UHGV virus genome: UHGV-0088365
Origin: a virus
Direction: 5' to 3' (one strand)
Length of the DNA stretch: 16,601 nucleotides
Shown: positions 2,572-14,926 of the stretch, piece after piece
How the letters are laid out: each line of letters begins with the position of its first letter
Numbering within the stretch: position 1 is the first letter of the stretch
Position numbers and translations under genes: made by a program
The notes under the pieces: model-generated
The model's database searches: none
What the model was told of the DNA's origin: nothing
The model's input: the letters and a program-made list of their open reading frames with translations, nothing else

Positions 2572-2600
2572 AATTTCTGCCCTTCCCCATCCCCGCCAGC

Positions 2601-3212
2601 TCACGCAGAACTCCTTCTAACCAAAAGAACGCCATCTTCAGAAACAACGTTGCAGGACTTCAGGTAATTCATTGCCTCTTTCGGTAATGGATTCTTTGGA
2701 TCGGCGTTTGCCAGGGATTTCGATAACCTCATGATAAATTTGATCATTACCTTCTGGCGAAGCTTGTGCTCATGAGATAAAGAAAGGTAATAGGAAATGG
2801 TATGGGCTAAACGCTCACGAAGCTGTTCTGTGCCGTGATATACAGCAGCGATATCACGCAGTGCATTGACCAGTTCCCGGTAAATATGCGGAGCAACCTG
2901 GCATTCAATGTTGGTTGGTGACTCATAAATTACATTCAGCCCCAGCTTTTGAGCCAGCTCGTGCTCTGCACGAGCGCCAACTGATTCCTCCCACCCCTTG
3001 AGCAAATAGACCGCATTAGCCGAACGCACCATTGCAAGGCAAATATCTATGTATTCGCTCTCGCAGAGGCCAGCAGGTAACAGCGCCGGATTCAGAACAA
3101 TATGCCCTACCTCCATCAGCTCTTTTGCTTTCGAAAAAAACGCTGTGCGGTTGTAGTCGGGATAACCAGTCATCGGCCCCGCGATGTAAATTTTCATAAT
3201 GCGTTTTGACAT
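2601..3212 (-). CDS. DUF4406-like (nucleoside 2-deoxyribosyltransferase-like fold) protein with an unrecognised C-terminal extension, about 203 aa
   Basis: ATG at 3212 (MSKRIMKIYIAGPMTGYPDYNRTAFF...VGHIVLNPALLP...) preceded by GGGGAAA; TGATG overlap with the upstream small ORF. The IYIAGPMTG...N...NP pattern is typical of the DUF4406 / deoxyribosyltransferase-like family. The track ORF 2601..3239 uses an upstream TTG. Confidence 0.65.
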   Translation of the reverse strand: MSKRIMKIYIAGPMTGYPDYNRTAFFSKAKELMEVGHIVLNPALLPAGLCESEYIDICLAMVRSANAVYLLKGWEESVGARAEHELAQKLGLNVIYESPTNIECQVAPHIYRELVNALRDIAAVYHGTEQLRERLAHTISYYLSLSHEHKLRQKVMIKFIMRLSKSLANADPKNPLPKEAMNYLKSCNVVSEDGVLLVRRSSA

Positions 3213-3367
3213 CAAAGTTTCCCCAGGAACGTTACGCAAAAGTTGATGAGAGCAAAGAGTTCAATGCCCAGCTCAAACAACGCCAGGACAGTGAAAAACA
3301 GGACATATAGCAACCCAATTTCTGAACCGGATTGCTGGTGGATTGCACTAATTGCGACAAGCATCAT
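3212..3367 (-). CDS. Small hydrophobic membrane peptide, about 51 aa, first gene of the leftward operon
   Basis: Not in the ORF track (too short). ATGATG at 3367..3362 preceded by AGGAGG; translation MMLVAISAIHQQSGSEIGLLYVLFFTVLALFELGIELFALINFCVTFLGKL; stop TGA overlaps the ATG of the DUF4406-like gene. Confidence 0.45.
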   Translation of the reverse strand: MMLVAISAIHQQSGSEIGLLYVLFFTVLALFELGIELFALINFCVTFLGKL

Positions 3368-3408
3368 GACCTCCTGATATAGCGTCTGAAAAAAGTATCT
3401 TCATTTTG

Positions 3409-3438
3409 TGTTAGAAAATCAATTTTGATTTTCTAACA
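3409..3438. promoter_or_regulatory. Perfect 30-bp palindrome TGTTAGAAAATCAATTTTGATTTTCTAACA in the divergent intergenic region; putative operator
   Basis: Read directly: the two 14-nt arms TGTTAGAAAATCAA and TTGATTTTCTAACA are exact reverse complements with a 2-nt centre (TT). It lies between the leftward operon start (3367) and the Ref-like gene start (3484). Related half-sites occur at 4060-4069 and in the 13973-14013 inverted repeat. Confidence 0.6.
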
Positions 3439-3483
3439 TGTTTGATCAACCATAGCGGCTATGTAGACAAACCGGGTATTTCT

Positions 3484-4059
3484 ATGAAGCAAAGCTATTG
3501 GGAGAAACAGACACAAAAAGCCCTGCAAAAACTGGCTGATCCGAAATGGCGAGAGGAACAAAGGGCAAAGCGTCTTCAGCAAGCTCAACGCCAGCAGCAG
3601 CGTGCGCGAGAAAAAGCCGCATCGCCTGAATATCGGCAAAAGAAAATTGAAAAAGCGAAGCAATATGAACAGCGAAGAAAAGAGAAGGCCGCTTCTGCTC
3701 CTGTCAAAAAAACTCGCGCGTCACGCGGCCTGAAAGGCAGAACACTCACAGCAGATGAGCGCCGGATACAAACTGCCATCGGTGCTCTCCCCTGCATTGC
3801 CTGCCATATGCACGGACAGCATAGCCCTGTGGTATCCCTGCACCACATCTTCGGAAGAACAGCAGAGAACGCGCATAAATACGTCCTCCCTTTGTGTAAA
3901 TGGCACCATCAACACGCAGCGCCAGCAGAGATCCGCGAGCAATACCCCTGGTTGGTTCCTGTTCATGCTGATGGAAAAATAGGCGGTAAAGCAGATTTCA
4001 GGCGGCACAATGCTGATGAAATGACGTTGTATCAGATGGCGATTGAATTGATGAATTAG
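3484..4059 (+). CDS. Ref-like recombination-enhancement HNH-family nuclease (basic disordered N-terminus plus Cys/His-rich C-terminal core), 191 aa
   Basis: ATG at 3484 (MKQSYWEKQ...). The N-terminal half is very K/R/Q-rich; the C-terminal half has CIACHMHGQ...LHHIFGRT...CKWHHQ, consistent with an HNH-type metal-binding nuclease core as described for phage P1 Ref. The track ORF starts further upstream at 3442. Confidence 0.65.
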   Translation: MKQSYWEKQTQKALQKLADPKWREEQRAKRLQQAQRQQQRAREKAASPEYRQKKIEKAKQYEQRRKEKAASAPVKKTRASRGLKGRTLTADERRIQTAIGALPCIACHMHGQHSPVVSLHHIFGRTAENAHKYVLPLCKWHHQHAAPAEIREQYPWLVPVHADGKIGGKADFRRHNADEMTLYQMAIELMN

Positions 4060-4075
4060 TTTTCTAACATTTTAA
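4056..4075. promoter_or_regulatory. Single copy of the TTTTCTAACA half-site immediately after the Ref-like stop codon
   Basis: TTTTCTAACA at 4060-4069 is identical to the right arm of the 3409-3438 palindrome; no convincing partner arm is seen upstream. Confidence 0.35.
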
Positions 4076-4390
4076 GTTGAATTATAAATTTCTCCGATGT
4101 ACATTCACTACCGATTGGCACACCGGTCAACTTTTTGAGACAAACTGTATAGTTTTTCGTATTATTGCCGCCGCCATACCTATGGCGGTGCAATATAGGT
4201 GGCTGAAAAGCCCCCGTTGACTCACGGTGTTCCAGCCTTTATTGCGCCGCCGCCAGACCGTGGAACAGTCGATGGCGGCTCCGAAAGCAAGGAGTCACTA
4301 CACTATGAACAGCTACTGTCTTTTCCCATCACTCGTTATCCGCCACTCACGCGATAATCTGCATTCTTTACTCGCGCTGGGGGTGTCAAA

Positions 4391-4558
4391 ATGACCGTTC
4401 GCTACCTCAACTTTCAAATCCAGAACATCACTGGCGGTTGCTATGACTGGTTTGTCACTCTCGGAAAAGAAGTGATCACCGGGAAGCTGGATGAAGTGAA
4501 AGCTAAAGCAATGGCCTACGCCTGCAAGCAAGCCCGGAAGAAATCCGCCAAAGCATAA
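4391..4558 (+). CDS. Hypothetical small basic protein, 55 aa, possibly coupled to a 29-aa leader ORF (4305-4394)
   Basis: ATG at 4391 with GGGGGTG upstream; translation MTVRYLNFQIQNITGGCYDWFVTLGKEVITGKLDEVKAKAMAYACKQARKKSAKA. A 29-aa ORF at 4305-4394 (AAGGAG upstream) ends in an ATGA overlap with this start. Both are below the ORF-track size cutoff; the antisense track ORF 4313..4531 looks less plausible. Confidence 0.3.
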   Translation: MTVRYLNFQIQNITGGCYDWFVTLGKEVITGKLDEVKAKAMAYACKQARKKSAKA

Positions 4559-4762
4559 AATACTGACTTTTGCGCCCTGGCCTTATCGTGGGGTATATTT
4601 CTACGGCACCTTAGAAAAACGGGTGCCGGGATTGGAACCTCACGCGGTAGCTCCTTAACTTAGTCAAAGGAGGCTGCCAATATCGCTACTATCCCCACCC
4701 CAACTCATTCTGAATTTATCTGGCGTTTCTATTCCTGCCAAAAACACCTGTATATCTGCGTC

Positions 4763-5140
4763 ATGGCTGCAACCGAAGCAGAAGCTCGTTCATACCTTCC
4801 TGAAGAACCCTGCATTTTTGCCGCACGCTTCACTCTTGATGCGATGGAGATCCTAAATTACTGGAATCTTCTTGTTTGGTGCTTTTCCAGCTTTGTTCAG
4901 GAAAGACTTTATAACTTTTATTGGGTATTTGTAGTGATGCTGATACTGGCATTCCTCACAGCCGGAATTGGCCCGTGGATTGCCTCATTTATCTGGGCGT
5001 TCATGTATAATAAATATTTCACCGTAAATAAGATAAAACAAGGCTTCATTTTTGCTGGTTCTCACACAGAAAATGAGTTGGCTGCTAGCAAGCTAGGATT
5101 GTCATTAAATCAAAACAACTGCAAAACTATTACCGAGTAA
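4763..5140 (+). CDS. Putative small inner-membrane protein (two predicted TM helices); start uncertain (4763 or 4844)
   Basis: ORF-track ORF; hydrophobic segments LLVWCFSSFV and YWVFVVMLILAFLTAGIGPWIASFIWAFM. The body is AT-rich relative to flanks. No clear Shine-Dalgarno at either candidate ATG. Confidence 0.45.
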   Translation: MAATEAEARSYLPEEPCIFAARFTLDAMEILNYWNLLVWCFSSFVQERLYNFYWVFVVMLILAFLTAGIGPWIASFIWAFMYNKYFTVNKIKQGFIFAGSHTENELAASKLGLSLNQNNCKTITE

Positions 5141-5147
5141 AGCCAAA

Positions 5148-5171
5148 AAGCAGGCTTAATAGTAAGCCTGC
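5148..5171. terminator. Hairpin GCAGGCTT-aatagt-AAGCCTGC between convergent genes; intrinsic terminator for the minus-strand gene, possibly bidirectional
   Basis: Perfect 8-bp stem with 6-nt loop. On the minus strand it is followed by TTTTTGGC; on the plus strand it is preceded by AAAAA. Confidence 0.55.
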
Positions 5172-5179
5172 TATGTCAA

Positions 5180-6013
5180 TCACGAATCTCTCTGACAATT
5201 CAGAAACATAAACGCCCGCTTGTCTGTTAAATCCGTAACATAATACTCTCTCATGCCTGTAGGTTTTATTCTACGAGCATATACAAACTTATGAACTGGT
5301 TGTTTTTCCCCATAACTTACATCAGTCCTAAATTCATCAACCACGCTACCATCTTTTTCAGTTTCCTTTCTCACTAGCTGATTTTCTAATACAGGCTTTG
5401 ATTCGTCCATGCCACTAAAAGCATCCTGACCTGTGCTGTTGCCTCGGTTTCCGCGTGGCAAATCCCATGAAAAATAAGTGCCATAGTCAGTAATCACACG
5501 ATCCCATGTTCCGGAATCCCCCATATAGTTAGAACGCTCCCCCTTGTAAGTTACAGCCACCTTACAGGCATACGTTTCACCATTATTTTTTTTATCATGT
5601 CCAGCCATGCTTGCAGGAGTTGCAGGGGAATTATGAATAGATGCGCTTACATCATCCTGCGTTAATTCCTCAACTGGAGCAAATTCATATATGGGTGTGC
5701 CGAGGCTATTTAAATATAACTTATATCTAACCCTAAGCGCACTTCCATCAGAAAATTCATACGTTCCCAGACATTGGAGCTTATTTTTTTCTCTTATCTC
5801 ATTGATCTGATTATAAGCATCAATTACAGAGATTGCTTCCTGATCGTCCTTCAGCAGTTCATTATAATCATCGATTAACATCTGTCTGGTTTTAGGGGCA
5901 TTACAGTCAATTTTGCTAAAATCATAAGCAAAGGCAAATGTGGGAACAGAGAGAGCAACAACAGTAGCAAGTATTGTTGAGGAACATCTTTTTCCATTTT
6001 TTATAAAAAACAT
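5180..6013 (-). CDS. Secreted or periplasmic protein of unknown function with Sec signal peptide, about 277 aa
   Basis: ORF-track ORF 5180..6091 trimmed to the ATG at 6013 (GGAG 8 nt upstream), giving MFFIKNGKRCSSTILATVVALSVPTFAFA-YDF: basic n-region, hydrophobic core and AFA cleavage-type motif. Mature part is rich in Gly, Tyr and Trp. AT-rich. No family recognised. Confidence 0.7.
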   Translation of the reverse strand: MFFIKNGKRCSSTILATVVALSVPTFAFAYDFSKIDCNAPKTRQMLIDDYNELLKDDQEAISVIDAYNQINEIREKNKLQCLGTYEFSDGSALRVRYKLYLNSLGTPIYEFAPVEELTQDDVSASIHNSPATPASMAGHDKKNNGETYACKVAVTYKGERSNYMGDSGTWDRVITDYGTYFSWDLPRGNRGNSTGQDAFSGMDESKPVLENQLVRKETEKDGSVVDEFRTDVSYGEKQPVHKFVYARRIKPTGMREYYVTDLTDKRAFMFLNCQRDS

Positions 6014-6305
6014 TTCATTAACTCCATACTTTACCATCTTAGCCGCGAGCGCGGTCCCTAAAACCCTTAACTTCACTACACCGTCCTTCATGTAAACAAA
6101 ATGAGGTTTTATGTTATAAAAACAATCAACTTCATCAACATGATTTAGGCCAAGTTTCGGTCAAATAATAAAATCCTCAAAAAGTGGTTGACACTATTCT
6201 GGAAATCACAAACTGCACATAATCCATCGCGCTAACGGCTCCCGTTGAAGGTTCTTTTGACGATTAACTTTCAGCCGAAGCGCGGTAGGGAGTCATAACG
6301 CCAAA

Positions 6306-9897: not shown

Positions 9898-10236
9898 TCA
9901 GGCTGCTTTTTTATTCAGGTTCCGCTGAGAAATAAATTTTTCAGCAGTATTGATACGACTTAACTCTTCCTGAACGCGCATATCATTTTCGACTTCCCAC
10001 AGATCTACTGCGGTCTGAAGATTAATCCAAAAATCTACAGAAGTATCGAATGCTTTTGCCAGGCGATATGCCATATCCATCGTTAGCTTACGATTGTTAT
10101 TAACAAGAGCACTTACGGTGTTACGATGAACATGAAGTATTTCTGCTAACTCGTTGATCTTCAGCTCTAACGGCTCCAGGTATTCGTACAGCAGGATATC
10201 ACCTACGGTCGTCGGTTTTCTGGTTGCCTGTTTCAT
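9898..10236 (-). CDS. higA: HigA-family antitoxin (XRE-type HTH), 112 aa
   Basis: ORF-track ORF; PTTVGDILLYEYLEPLELKINELAEILHVHRNTVSALVNNNRKLTMDMAYRLAKAFDTSVDFWINLQTAVDLW matches the HigA/VapI HTH antitoxin pattern; it lies downstream of a HigB-like toxin gene (toxin-first order typical of higBA). Confidence 0.8.
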   Translation of the reverse strand: MKQATRKPTTVGDILLYEYLEPLELKINELAEILHVHRNTVSALVNNNRKLTMDMAYRLAKAFDTSVDFWINLQTAVDLWEVENDMRVQEELSRINTAEKFISQRNLNKKAA

Positions 10237-10306
10237 TTTTTGCCCTTACTAGCGTGCGTATTAAGTGGACTCTGGTCAGAACCCGGTCCGTAACCGGGTA
10301 TCTGTT

Positions 10307-10609
10307 TTAGTATTTGTGAGGGTCGAGATACAAGTCCTCGGCCTTTCCGTTAACCCACTTAAAAATTAACCTATATTGCTTATTCACCCTTACTGATGAA
10401 TAGCCATTTAGCTTCCCTGACAGTTCCTCATACCGATTACCTGGTGGTGATCTTAAATCCTTACAGGTAGTTGCGGCATTGATAATGTCCAACTTCCGTG
10501 ACAATGTCATATGAATATCAGGAGGTATCTTTCTATGTGGTGTTGAAAATTCAAAAAAATCATCAAGCCACGCATCCCTGAAATCCTTTATGTTAATTTT
10601 TTTGGTCAT
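10307..10609 (-). CDS. higB: HigB-like toxin (plasmid-maintenance killer protein, RelE/ParE superfamily), 100 aa
   Basis: ORF-track ORF; C-terminal half GNRYEELSGKLNGYSSVRVNKQYRLIFKWVNGKAEDLYLDPHKY follows the HigB pattern (...G.R.G.YS.RVN..YRL.F...NG.A..L...DYH) as I recall it; upstream GGAGGA. Confidence 0.8.
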   Translation of the reverse strand: MTKKINIKDFRDAWLDDFFEFSTPHRKIPPDIHMTLSRKLDIINAATTCKDLRSPPGNRYEELSGKLNGYSSVRVNKQYRLIFKWVNGKAEDLYLDPHKY

Positions 10610-13961: not shown

Positions 13962-13972
13962 AAAATGCACCC

Positions 13973-14013
13973 ATTTGTGTTAGATAATTAACGCATATTT
14001 TCTAACACAAATG
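13973..14013. promoter_or_regulatory. 13-bp perfect inverted repeat CATTTGTGTTAGA-N15-TCTAACACAAATG directly upstream of rdgC; related to the 3409-3438 palindrome
   Basis: Read directly; arms at 13973-13985 and 14001-14013. It shares the core TGTTAGA / TCTAACA with the two sites at 3409-3438 and 4060-4069. No T-run follows, so it does not look like an intrinsic terminator. Confidence 0.55.
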
Positions 14014-14020
14014 GTGAGAA

Positions 14021-14926
14021 ATGAGATCAGTCGCTTTCAAAAATATCTTCATCTATCGTCTTTCACGCGAAGTTAACTGGGATACCGCAGTAGTAAATGC
14101 AGCCCTTAGCAAGTTTGTGTTTACCCCATGCGGTTCTCAGGATATGGCTAAAGCTGGTTGGACCCCAATTCTTGGCGACAACCTCACCCATGAAAACCAG
14201 GGTTTTCTTCTGATGCAGCATAAACGAGAGGAAAAAATCCTGCCTTCTCAAGTACTCAAAGAAGAGTTACAGAAAAAAATCCTGAAACTTGAAGAAGAGC
14301 AAGACAGAAAGCTGAAGAAGACCGAAAAAGATTCGCTGAAGGATGAAGTGCTTCACTCTCTTCTTCCTCGTGCTTTCACGAGAAAATCACTCGCAAAAAT
14401 CCTGATCGACCGCAGCAACCATCTGGTATTCGTTGAGGCAAGCAGCGCCAAAAAGGCAGAGGACCAGCTGGCTTTATTGCGAAAATCGCTCGGCAGCCTG
14501 CCTGTCATTCCATTCACACCACGCGAACCGCTGGAAATTACAATGACCGAGTGGTTTAAAAACGGCTTCCCTGCCGGATTTACAGCAGGTGAAGACGCCA
14601 CATTAAAGGGTCTGCTCGATAATGGTGGTGCCGTTCGCTGTAACAAAGTTGATCTACAGTCCGACGAGATTATGTCTCACATTGAGGCGGGGAAAGTAGC
14701 TACGACCGTTGCAATTAACTGGATGGACCGCGCGTCGTTCAGAGTCAACGATGATATGAGTATCAAAGCCCTGACATTCTGTGATGATCTCTATGACCAG
14801 AACGACGATATCGACCGGGAGGATGTAGCACAACGATTTGATGCTGATTTCGTGCTCTTTACGGGCGAATTATCTGCACTGTTTAACGCGCTGGTGGAGG
14901 CCATTGGCGGTGAAGCAGAACGATAA
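14021..14926 (+). CDS. rdgC: RdgC-family recombination-associated protein, 301 aa
   Basis: ORF-track ORF; long colinear identity with E. coli RdgC as I recall it (FKN..YRLSRE..., FTPCGSQDMAKAGW, REEKILPS, KKTEKDSLKDEVLHSLLPRAF, ASSAKKAEDQLALLRKSLGSLPV). Confidence 0.9.
   Translation: MRSVAFKNIFIYRLSREVNWDTAVVNAALSKFVFTPCGSQDMAKAGWTPILGDNLTHENQGFLLMQHKREEKILPSQVLKEELQKKILKLEEEQDRKLKKTEKDSLKDEVLHSLLPRAFTRKSLAKILIDRSNHLVFVEASSAKKAEDQLALLRKSLGSLPVIPFTPREPLEITMTEWFKNGFPAGFTAGEDATLKGLLDNGGAVRCNKVDLQSDEIMSHIEAGKVATTVAINWMDRASFRVNDDMSIKALTFCDDLYDQNDDIDREDVAQRFDADFVLFTGELSALFNALVEAIGGEAER

Follow-up and report, generated by a model that had tools for sequence, protein, structure and literature searches.

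A probable bivalent C1-type operator between ref and a divergent early operon in a phage D6-like prophage

The locus around the inverted repeat

The window (the whole stretch of 16,601 nucleotides that we analysed) contains a 30-bp element, TGTTAGAAAATCAATTTTGATTTTCTAACA, at 3409–3438. The element lies between two genes that point away from each other. To its right is ref (3484–4059, plus strand), which encodes a Ref-like RecA-dependent nuclease of 191 amino acids (Pfam PF16786, RecA_dep_nuc; E = 1.7e-36) that is 58% identical to the Ref of phage P1. To its left, on the minus strand, is a 51-amino-acid ORF from the family phrog_8890 (3212–3367, with its ATG at 3367). This ORF is the first gene of a tightly packed leftward early operon, which also includes DUF4406, a D5-like regulator, Ea22-like genes, and others.

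Judging from sequence comparisons, the window is a D6-like (P1-related) plasmid prophage. Over positions 2600–4600, identity is 99.3% with the E. coli plasmid NZ_CP029365.1 and about 90% with phage D6. This 2-kb stretch is matched by 118 plasmids in PLSDB, from Escherichia, Salmonella, and Shigella. When genome contigs were scanned for Ref, only two distant loci were found, and both lack the motif that is described below.

The original prediction was that 3409–3438 is a perfect, or exact, palindrome. The sequence bears out the position of the 30-mer, but the symmetry is slightly less than was claimed. Two 14-nt arms (3409–3422 and 3425–3438) form a perfect inverted repeat with a gap of 2 nt, and because the TT in the centre (positions 15 and 16 of the element; 3423–3424) is not palindromic, 28 of the 30 positions are paired. 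The left half-site reads TGTTAGAAAATCAA on the plus strand (with its flanks, TGTGTTAGAAAATCAATTT at 3407–3425), and the right half-site reads TGTTAGAAAATCAA on the minus strand. Against the position weight matrix (PWM) for the motif, the left half-site scores 27.4 bits and the right half-site scores 23.4 bits. The left half-site is invariant in nearly all relatives, while its flanks have diverged.

The AT-richness of this intergenic DNA is the one reason to consider a chance palindrome. But in 200 Markov shuffles of the window, the longest perfect arm (allowing gaps of up to 4 nt) was 11 nt, versus 14 nt at 3409–3438. Furthermore, the 10-mer TGTTAGAAAA occurs four times in the window versus 0.07 expected, and the element is conserved amid diverged flanks. 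We consider the probability of a chance origin to be negligible. Just three close inverted repeats in the whole window have arms of at least 12 nt, and two of these (3409–3438 and 13978–14007) are built from the motif.

Each arm appears to hold the −35 hexamer of a promoter that points away from the element, because the −35 hexamers of the top candidates fall within the arms. On the minus strand, the predicted sigma-70 promoter at 3394–3422 has TTGATT (3422–3417) as its −35, a 17-bp spacer, and GATACT (3399–3394) as its −10. With a score of 9.32, it is the best minus-strand candidate in the intergenic region (the 90th and 95th percentiles of the background are 8.42 and 9.55), and relatives keep a promoter at this position as TTGATT-16-TAATAT. 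It is predicted to drive the small ORF at 3212–3367 and the early operon beyond. On the plus strand, the predicted ref promoter at 3425–3453 has TTGATT (3425–3430), a 17-bp spacer, and AACCAT (3448–3453); in relatives, the −10 is AATCAT. This was the top plus-strand candidate in the window and in all relatives that we tested, with scores of 7.44–8.73. By this simple sigma-70 scoring, the promoters are moderate (7.4 and 9.3 versus 9.6 at the 95th percentile of the background). Yet in relatives with different hexamers, both positions still rank at the top, with one exception: in contig L038, the leftward promoter is second (8.24 versus 8.41). Overlapping candidates include a rightward promoter with both hexamers within the arms (TTAGAA or TAGAAA with TAACAT at 3434–3439; scores of 6.4–7.1) and a leftward TTGATC-16-CAAAAT (8.41). 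The exact predicted start varies among these candidates, and every plausible promoter would be covered by the operator.

Four base pairs from the element is a conserved 8-bp palindrome, TTGATCAA (3442–3449), which contains a Dam site (GATC at 3444–3447). When 25 unique sequences from upstream of ref are aligned, the operator and the GATCAAYCAT block downstream of it are seen to be conserved; GATCAA itself is invariant, and the neighbouring bases vary. In contrast, little of the sequence from the leftward start codon to the operator is shared by the window's lineage and D6 proper. The 8-bp palindrome overlaps the −10 region of the predicted ref promoter, or else it serves as the −35 of the alternative leftward promoter. 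The Dam site and the invariant GATCAA suggest that promoter activity may be sensitive to methylation, as is annotated for the cre and kilA promoters of P1.

A dispersed family of asymmetric sites

The half-site is one copy of a dispersed and asymmetric motif with the consensus TR-TGTTAGAAAA-YTAA-WWT (from 21 aligned sites). The information content of the motif spans about 17–19 positions. In the 89-kb plasmid NZ_CP029365.1, the 9-mer TGTTAGAAA has 16 exact copies, versus 0.74 expected, and all 16 are in non-coding DNA, which makes up 15% of that genome. The distribution of PWM scores in this plasmid is bimodal: 19 sites reach 18.6 bits or more, and the remainder score around 15 bits or less. 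In D6, 18 sites score at least 15 bits, and 16 of these are intergenic, although just 10.5% of the D6 genome is non-coding. Overall, the closest complete plasmid has about 19–20 strong copies and D6 has 18, nearly all of them intergenic.

Most of the sites are single. The closest plasmid has four inverted pairs, each spanning exactly 30 bp from outer end to outer end. Across these pairs, the arms are conserved but the centres differ, and the centres of the pairs other than the one at ref are not complementary. The second pair in the window, TGTTAGATAATTAA / TGTTAGAAAATATG at 13978–14007, is another putative bivalent operator and lies 14 bp upstream of hrdC/rdgC (14021–14926). The fourth copy of TGTTAGAAAA in the window (13998–14007) is part of this pair. 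We also noticed that the symmetry of the second pair extends to 18-nt arms (CCATTTGTGTTAGATAAT / ATTTTCTAACACAAATGG, within 13971–14014), and that an A-to-T variant in its left arm creates a −10-like GATAAT (13983–13988).

A weaker single site, TGTTATAAAAACAA, is at 6112–6125 on the plus strand. It scores 15.9 bits in the window, 18.6 bits in the closest plasmid, and 17.2 bits in D6. It lies between a simB-like gene (minus strand, starting at 6091, 21 bp away) and mat (6318), and it overlaps a predicted minus-strand −10 (TAACAT). Another weak copy, TGTATTAGAAAATCAG (5378–5391; 16 bits), is within the coding sequence of the simB-like gene. Both of these weak copies are conserved in D6.

The predominance of single sites bears on whether the element acts as a nucleic-acid structure, that is, as an RNA hairpin or terminator or as a DNA cruciform extruded at the AT-rich dyad. 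If it were transcribed, then the element would form a 14-bp stem with a folding energy of −16.9 kcal/mol (z-score of −5.7). However, it lies between divergent starts, with both flanking genes and the predicted transcription starts downstream of it. No U tract follows the A/U-rich stem, and a scan for terminators was negative at 3409–3438. Furthermore, most copies of the motif are half-sites that cannot form a hairpin, yet they are just as conserved and as intergenic, and the other pairs keep their arms despite having non-complementary centres. These observations make a structural role extremely improbable.

The right arm of the element is perfect in the window's lineage and in contig L038, but it is degenerate in D6 proper (TTGAATATCTAAC, under 14 bits). 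Because of this, the pairing of sites is not universal at ref. In L038 (1416–1445) and L093 (IMGVR_UViG_2908543018_000007), which come from a relative whose C1 is 69% identical, the palindrome at ref is TGTTAGAAATTCAA TT TTGAATTTCTAACA. It is perfect, with the same A-to-T change in both arms; gene conversion between the arms is one possibility. Three sites in L038 and L093 have AAATT instead of AAAAT, so we also considered that the specificity had shifted in this relative. We rejected this idea because AAAA-type sites are present there as well, including upstream of c1.

The C1 homologue and the comparison with P1

In phage P1, the repressor C1 binds 22 dispersed and asymmetric 17-bp sites with the consensus ATTGCTCTAATAAATTT (PMC8546580). 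The D6-type sites occupy the positions of curated C1 operators of P1: at the ref promoter (Oref), at the ref stop codon (Omat), and 28 bp upstream of c1 (Oc1). Other shared positions are upstream of lpa (Olpa; the Lpa homologue is 31% identical to that of P1), before and after repL (OrepL and Orlf), upstream of icd/ant (Oc4), and upstream of hrdC (Odmt). For instance, the pair at 13978–14007 corresponds by synteny to P1's Odmt (Op68), upstream of uhr-hrdC-dmt.

The sequences of the sites are different. Searching for the P1 consensus ATTGCTCTAATAAATTT with up to three mismatches gave no hits in the window or in the whole plasmid, versus 15 in 55 kb of P1. Conversely, the 55 kb of P1 yielded just one borderline match to the D6-type motif, at 14.1 bits, and no clear site. 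Since the sites and pairs mirror those of P1 while the two motifs do not cross-match, the D6-type sites have the same architecture as P1's with a different sequence.

The D6-like element does encode a homologue of C1. Its gene lies outside of the window (54487–55524 in NZ_CP029365.1) and is syntenic with the c1 of P1, with pacB and cre as neighbours. The protein, of 345 amino acids, shares 21% identity with P1 C1 over 268 amino acids (E = 1e-8), and both proteins match phrog_1678 (E = 5e-170 for the D6-type protein and E = 3e-140 for P1 C1). In the D6 record, the corresponding gene (orf1) carries the annotation of a C1-like prophage repressor. Neither C1 protein matches a Pfam family or has a relative in the PDB. 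The original prediction had named the element's small helix-turn-helix proteins as candidate binders; from sequence, the C1 homologue is the likelier one. We assign the motif to C1 because of synteny, co-occurrence, and analogy.

The motif also follows the type of C1. Among relatives from IMG/VR, the site 28 bp upstream of c1 is identical across C1 alleles that are 79–100% identical. The contig whose C1 is 69% identical has D6-type sites at c1, at lpa, at ref, and after ref. However, we found no D6-type site in the 7.5-kb c1 loci of relatives whose C1 is 29–35% identical, even though their PacB is 73–78% identical. Because the motif is present with C1 proteins that are 69–100% identical and absent with those that are 29–35% identical, the two appear to go together, as a repressor and its operator would, although this evidence is correlative. 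A search for repeated 10-mers in the 7.5-kb loci of the 29–35% relatives did not reveal a clear motif.

We also considered that another global factor might bind the motif, such as the host's IHF, Fis, ArgR, or LexA, or the phage's late activator Lpa. The site is AT-rich with an ATCAA-like sequence, and P1-family phages use dispersed late-promoter boxes. But no LexA box is present, as the original prediction had noted: nothing at the element matches CTGT-N8-ACAG with up to one mismatch, and across the window, such dyads are as frequent as expected by chance. By inspection, neither WATCAANNNNTTR nor the ARG-box consensus is matched. Furthermore, the genes that follow the sites have early and immunity functions (c1, lpa itself, repL, ref, hrdC, and c4) and are not the structural late operons, and the motif tracks the type of C1 among related phages. 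We therefore think that such a factor is very unlikely.

A local operator deserves somewhat more weight, though it too seems unlikely. The leftward operon that the element would control encodes a D5-like regulator of 105 amino acids (2287–2604; phrog_323, E = 1e-26), and this or another small DNA-binding protein nearby might regulate the divergent pair, including its own gene, independently of C1. The perfect symmetry of the arms in the window's lineage would suit a dimeric helix-turn-helix protein. However, about 20 copies of the motif are present across the genome, mostly as single asymmetric sites, including 28 bp upstream of c1 and at the positions of P1's C1 operators, and one arm is degenerate in D6 proper. 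A local autoregulator would leave this P1-like, genome-wide regulon unexplained.

Instead, we propose that ref and the divergent early operon are both controlled from this element, acting as a bivalent C1-type operator with D6 specificity (with a probability of roughly 0.85). Each 14-bp arm would be the core of an asymmetric C1 site of about 17–19 bp that fits the consensus above. The two sites would be inverted so that their A/T-rich ends meet in the centre, as in the Obanab and Oc1ab operators of P1. In a lysogen, each arm would be occupied by one repressor molecule, covering the −35 hexamer and the spacer of one of the two back-to-back promoters, and C1 would keep both the rightward ref and the leftward early operon silent. 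Upon loss of C1 activity, both would be switched on. That the sites are bound by monomers is an extrapolation from P1, because the motif has no convincing likeness to ATTGCTCTAATAAATTT and the geometry of the pair is off by 2 bp. As for the broader idea in the original prediction, that divergent promoters share an operator, the conservation footprint, the intergenic family of motifs, and the predicted −35 hexamers in both arms all support it well.

The closest known counterparts are the C1 operators around ref in P1 (ref at 2077–2637), namely Oref (formerly Op2a; 1962–1978) and Omat (formerly Op2b; 2628–2645). P1 has C1 operators at the ref promoter and overlapping the ref stop codon, as we propose for the D6-type sites, and in both cases, the sites are asymmetric, about 17 bp long, and part of a dispersed regulon of around 20 sites. 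But the recognition sequences are unrelated (TGTTAGAAAAYTAA here versus ATTGCTCTAATAAATTT in P1). Also, P1's Oref is monovalent and serves one promoter, whereas the D6-type site at ref is paired and would be common to a divergent operon. And while Omat precedes mat, the site after ref in the window has the opposite orientation and precedes a c4-like RNA. (In the P1 record, L005 or NC_005856, Omat at 2628–2645 is assigned to the minus strand, yet it is the plus strand that carries the consensus-like CATGCACTAATAAATAT, so the strand in the record looks inverted.)

The pairing itself resembles P1's Obanab (Op72ab) and Oc1ab (Op99ab), in which two asymmetric 17-mers are also inverted, with the G/C-containing ends outside and the A/T-rich ends overlapping in the centre. 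Both the P1 operators and the D6-type pair are imperfect palindromes that overlap promoter hexamers. The D6-type pair spans 30 bp (14 + 2 + 14) instead of 28 bp (14 + 14), and it would serve two divergent promoters, whereas the bivalent operators of P1 serve tandem promoters of one operon. In the operators of lambdoid phages (OR and OL, bound by CI and Cro), repressor sites also cover divergent promoters at a control point between lysis and lysogeny. However, the lambdoid operators are symmetric, are bound by dimers, and are clustered in threes at one or two loci by the repressor gene, unlike the D6-type sites, which are asymmetric, mostly single, and scattered across the genome. The co-repressor Lxc of P1 is reportedly absent from the D6 lineage (PMC6799933).

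More tentatively, and at somewhat less than even odds, the D6 lineage may have a distinct C1-family immunity specificity, with an unannotated code (TR-TGTTAGAAAA-YTAA-WWT, and pairs of 30 bp), and the operator at ref may have been upgraded so as to give tighter co-repression. The ancestral arrangement would be one strong and one degenerate half-site, as in D6, which would have become a perfect pair in the window's sub-lineage. The perfect pair would tighten the co-repression of the RecA-dependent nuclease Ref and of the multi-gene early operon, possibly along with Dam methylation at GATC.

Plasmid prophages of the D6 type are often found in E. coli, Salmonella, and Shigella; operators are not annotated in the D6 GenBank record or in the RefSeq plasmids. 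Full-text searches for the motif string or for operators of D6 gave no relevant match, though the D6 genome paper (Gilcrease & Casjens 2018) may already list the sites. The operator consensus and the map of about 20 sites give the likely C1 regulon, and the genes that are predicted to be silent in lysogens are ref, hrdC, lpa, repL, and the early accessory operons. With such different motifs, D6-type and P1-type repressors are not expected to cross-react, and the sequences themselves offer the reason. As a principle, this arrangement is familiar from P1 and ordinary for the P1 family; as far as these comparisons indicate, it is the recognition sequence and the geometry of the 30-bp pairs that are specific to the D6 lineage. 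This analysis is useful as annotation and does not put forward a new regulatory principle.

The site after ref and the C4-like RNA

The original prediction also noted that a half-site recurs after ref, and we confirmed the 10-mer TTTTCTAACA at 4060–4069. The site extends to 4056–4069 (TTAGTTTTCTAACA), which agrees with the arm at 12 of its 14 positions and takes in the stop codon of ref (TAG at 4057–4059). On the minus strand, it reads TGTTAGAAAACTAA and scores 25.1 bits. It is kept in all of the relatives, including those whose Ref is just 72–86% identical.

The site is 7 bp upstream of the −35 of a predicted plus-strand promoter at 4077–4105, which comprises TTGAAT (4077–4082), a 17-bp spacer, and TACATT (4100–4105). 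This promoter's score of 11.61 is near the maximum for the window (12.24), and the promoter is conserved in relatives. It reads into a putative C4-like antisense RNA (immI-type immunity RNA; Rfam RF01695) at 4178–4257 on the plus strand. No Rfam family matches the window at the gathering thresholds; the match to RF01695 covers the full length of the model with 37.7 bits, versus a gathering score of 45, and has E = 3.4e-05 in a 1.5-kb search. In D6, the position equivalent to that of the C4-like RNA lies upstream of icd.

Because the half-site is directly upstream of a promoter that reads into the C4-like RNA, it is probably the operator of the next, immI-like unit. In functional terms, then, and contrary to what had been suggested, the motif does not bracket ref; instead, the site after ref adjoins a conserved rightward promoter. 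We propose that this site belongs to the same regulon but stands by itself, as a single operator located where the C4-like RNA has its promoter region, and that it functions like P1's Oc4 (Op51). In P1's immI region, Oc4 and the tandem promoters P2c4 and P1c4 are upstream of the c4 antisense RNA, and similarly, the site after ref adjoins the promoter or promoters leading into the C4-like RNA. Among the differences, the D6-type site is set back from the strong promoter, ending 7 bp short of its −35 rather than overlapping it; the window's antirepressor gene has been deleted relative to D6; and the RNA match is below the Rfam gathering score.

In D6, this region precedes icd and the antirepressor gene; in the window, about 1.5 kb that includes the antirepressor gene is deleted. 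Since this stretch is missing relative to D6, the immI-like module appears to be a remnant that lacks the antirepressor. The missing sequence corresponds to 16170–17705 of the D6 record (L002), which contains the rest of icd, the antirepressor gene orf82, pmgF, and the start of orf80. Just the 5' part of icd remains (4630–4869 of the window), and it is fused to downstream sequence. The ORF at 4763–5140 matches phrog_1426 and then phrog_4915.

We noticed two other features of the window. First, positions 4800–6034 do not align to NZ_CP029365.1, yet they are about 94% identical to D6. Because this segment aligns to D6 and not to the plasmid that is otherwise closest, the window seems to be a mosaic. 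The simB-like ORF (5180–6091, 303 amino acids) is intact in the window, while the plasmid has two shorter CDSs there. Second, going by the annotation of the matching plasmid, a HigB/HigA-type toxin-antitoxin pair is inserted among the tail and baseplate genes at 9898–10609 on the minus strand (a RelE/ParE toxin at 10307–10609 and a HigA antitoxin at 9898–10236).
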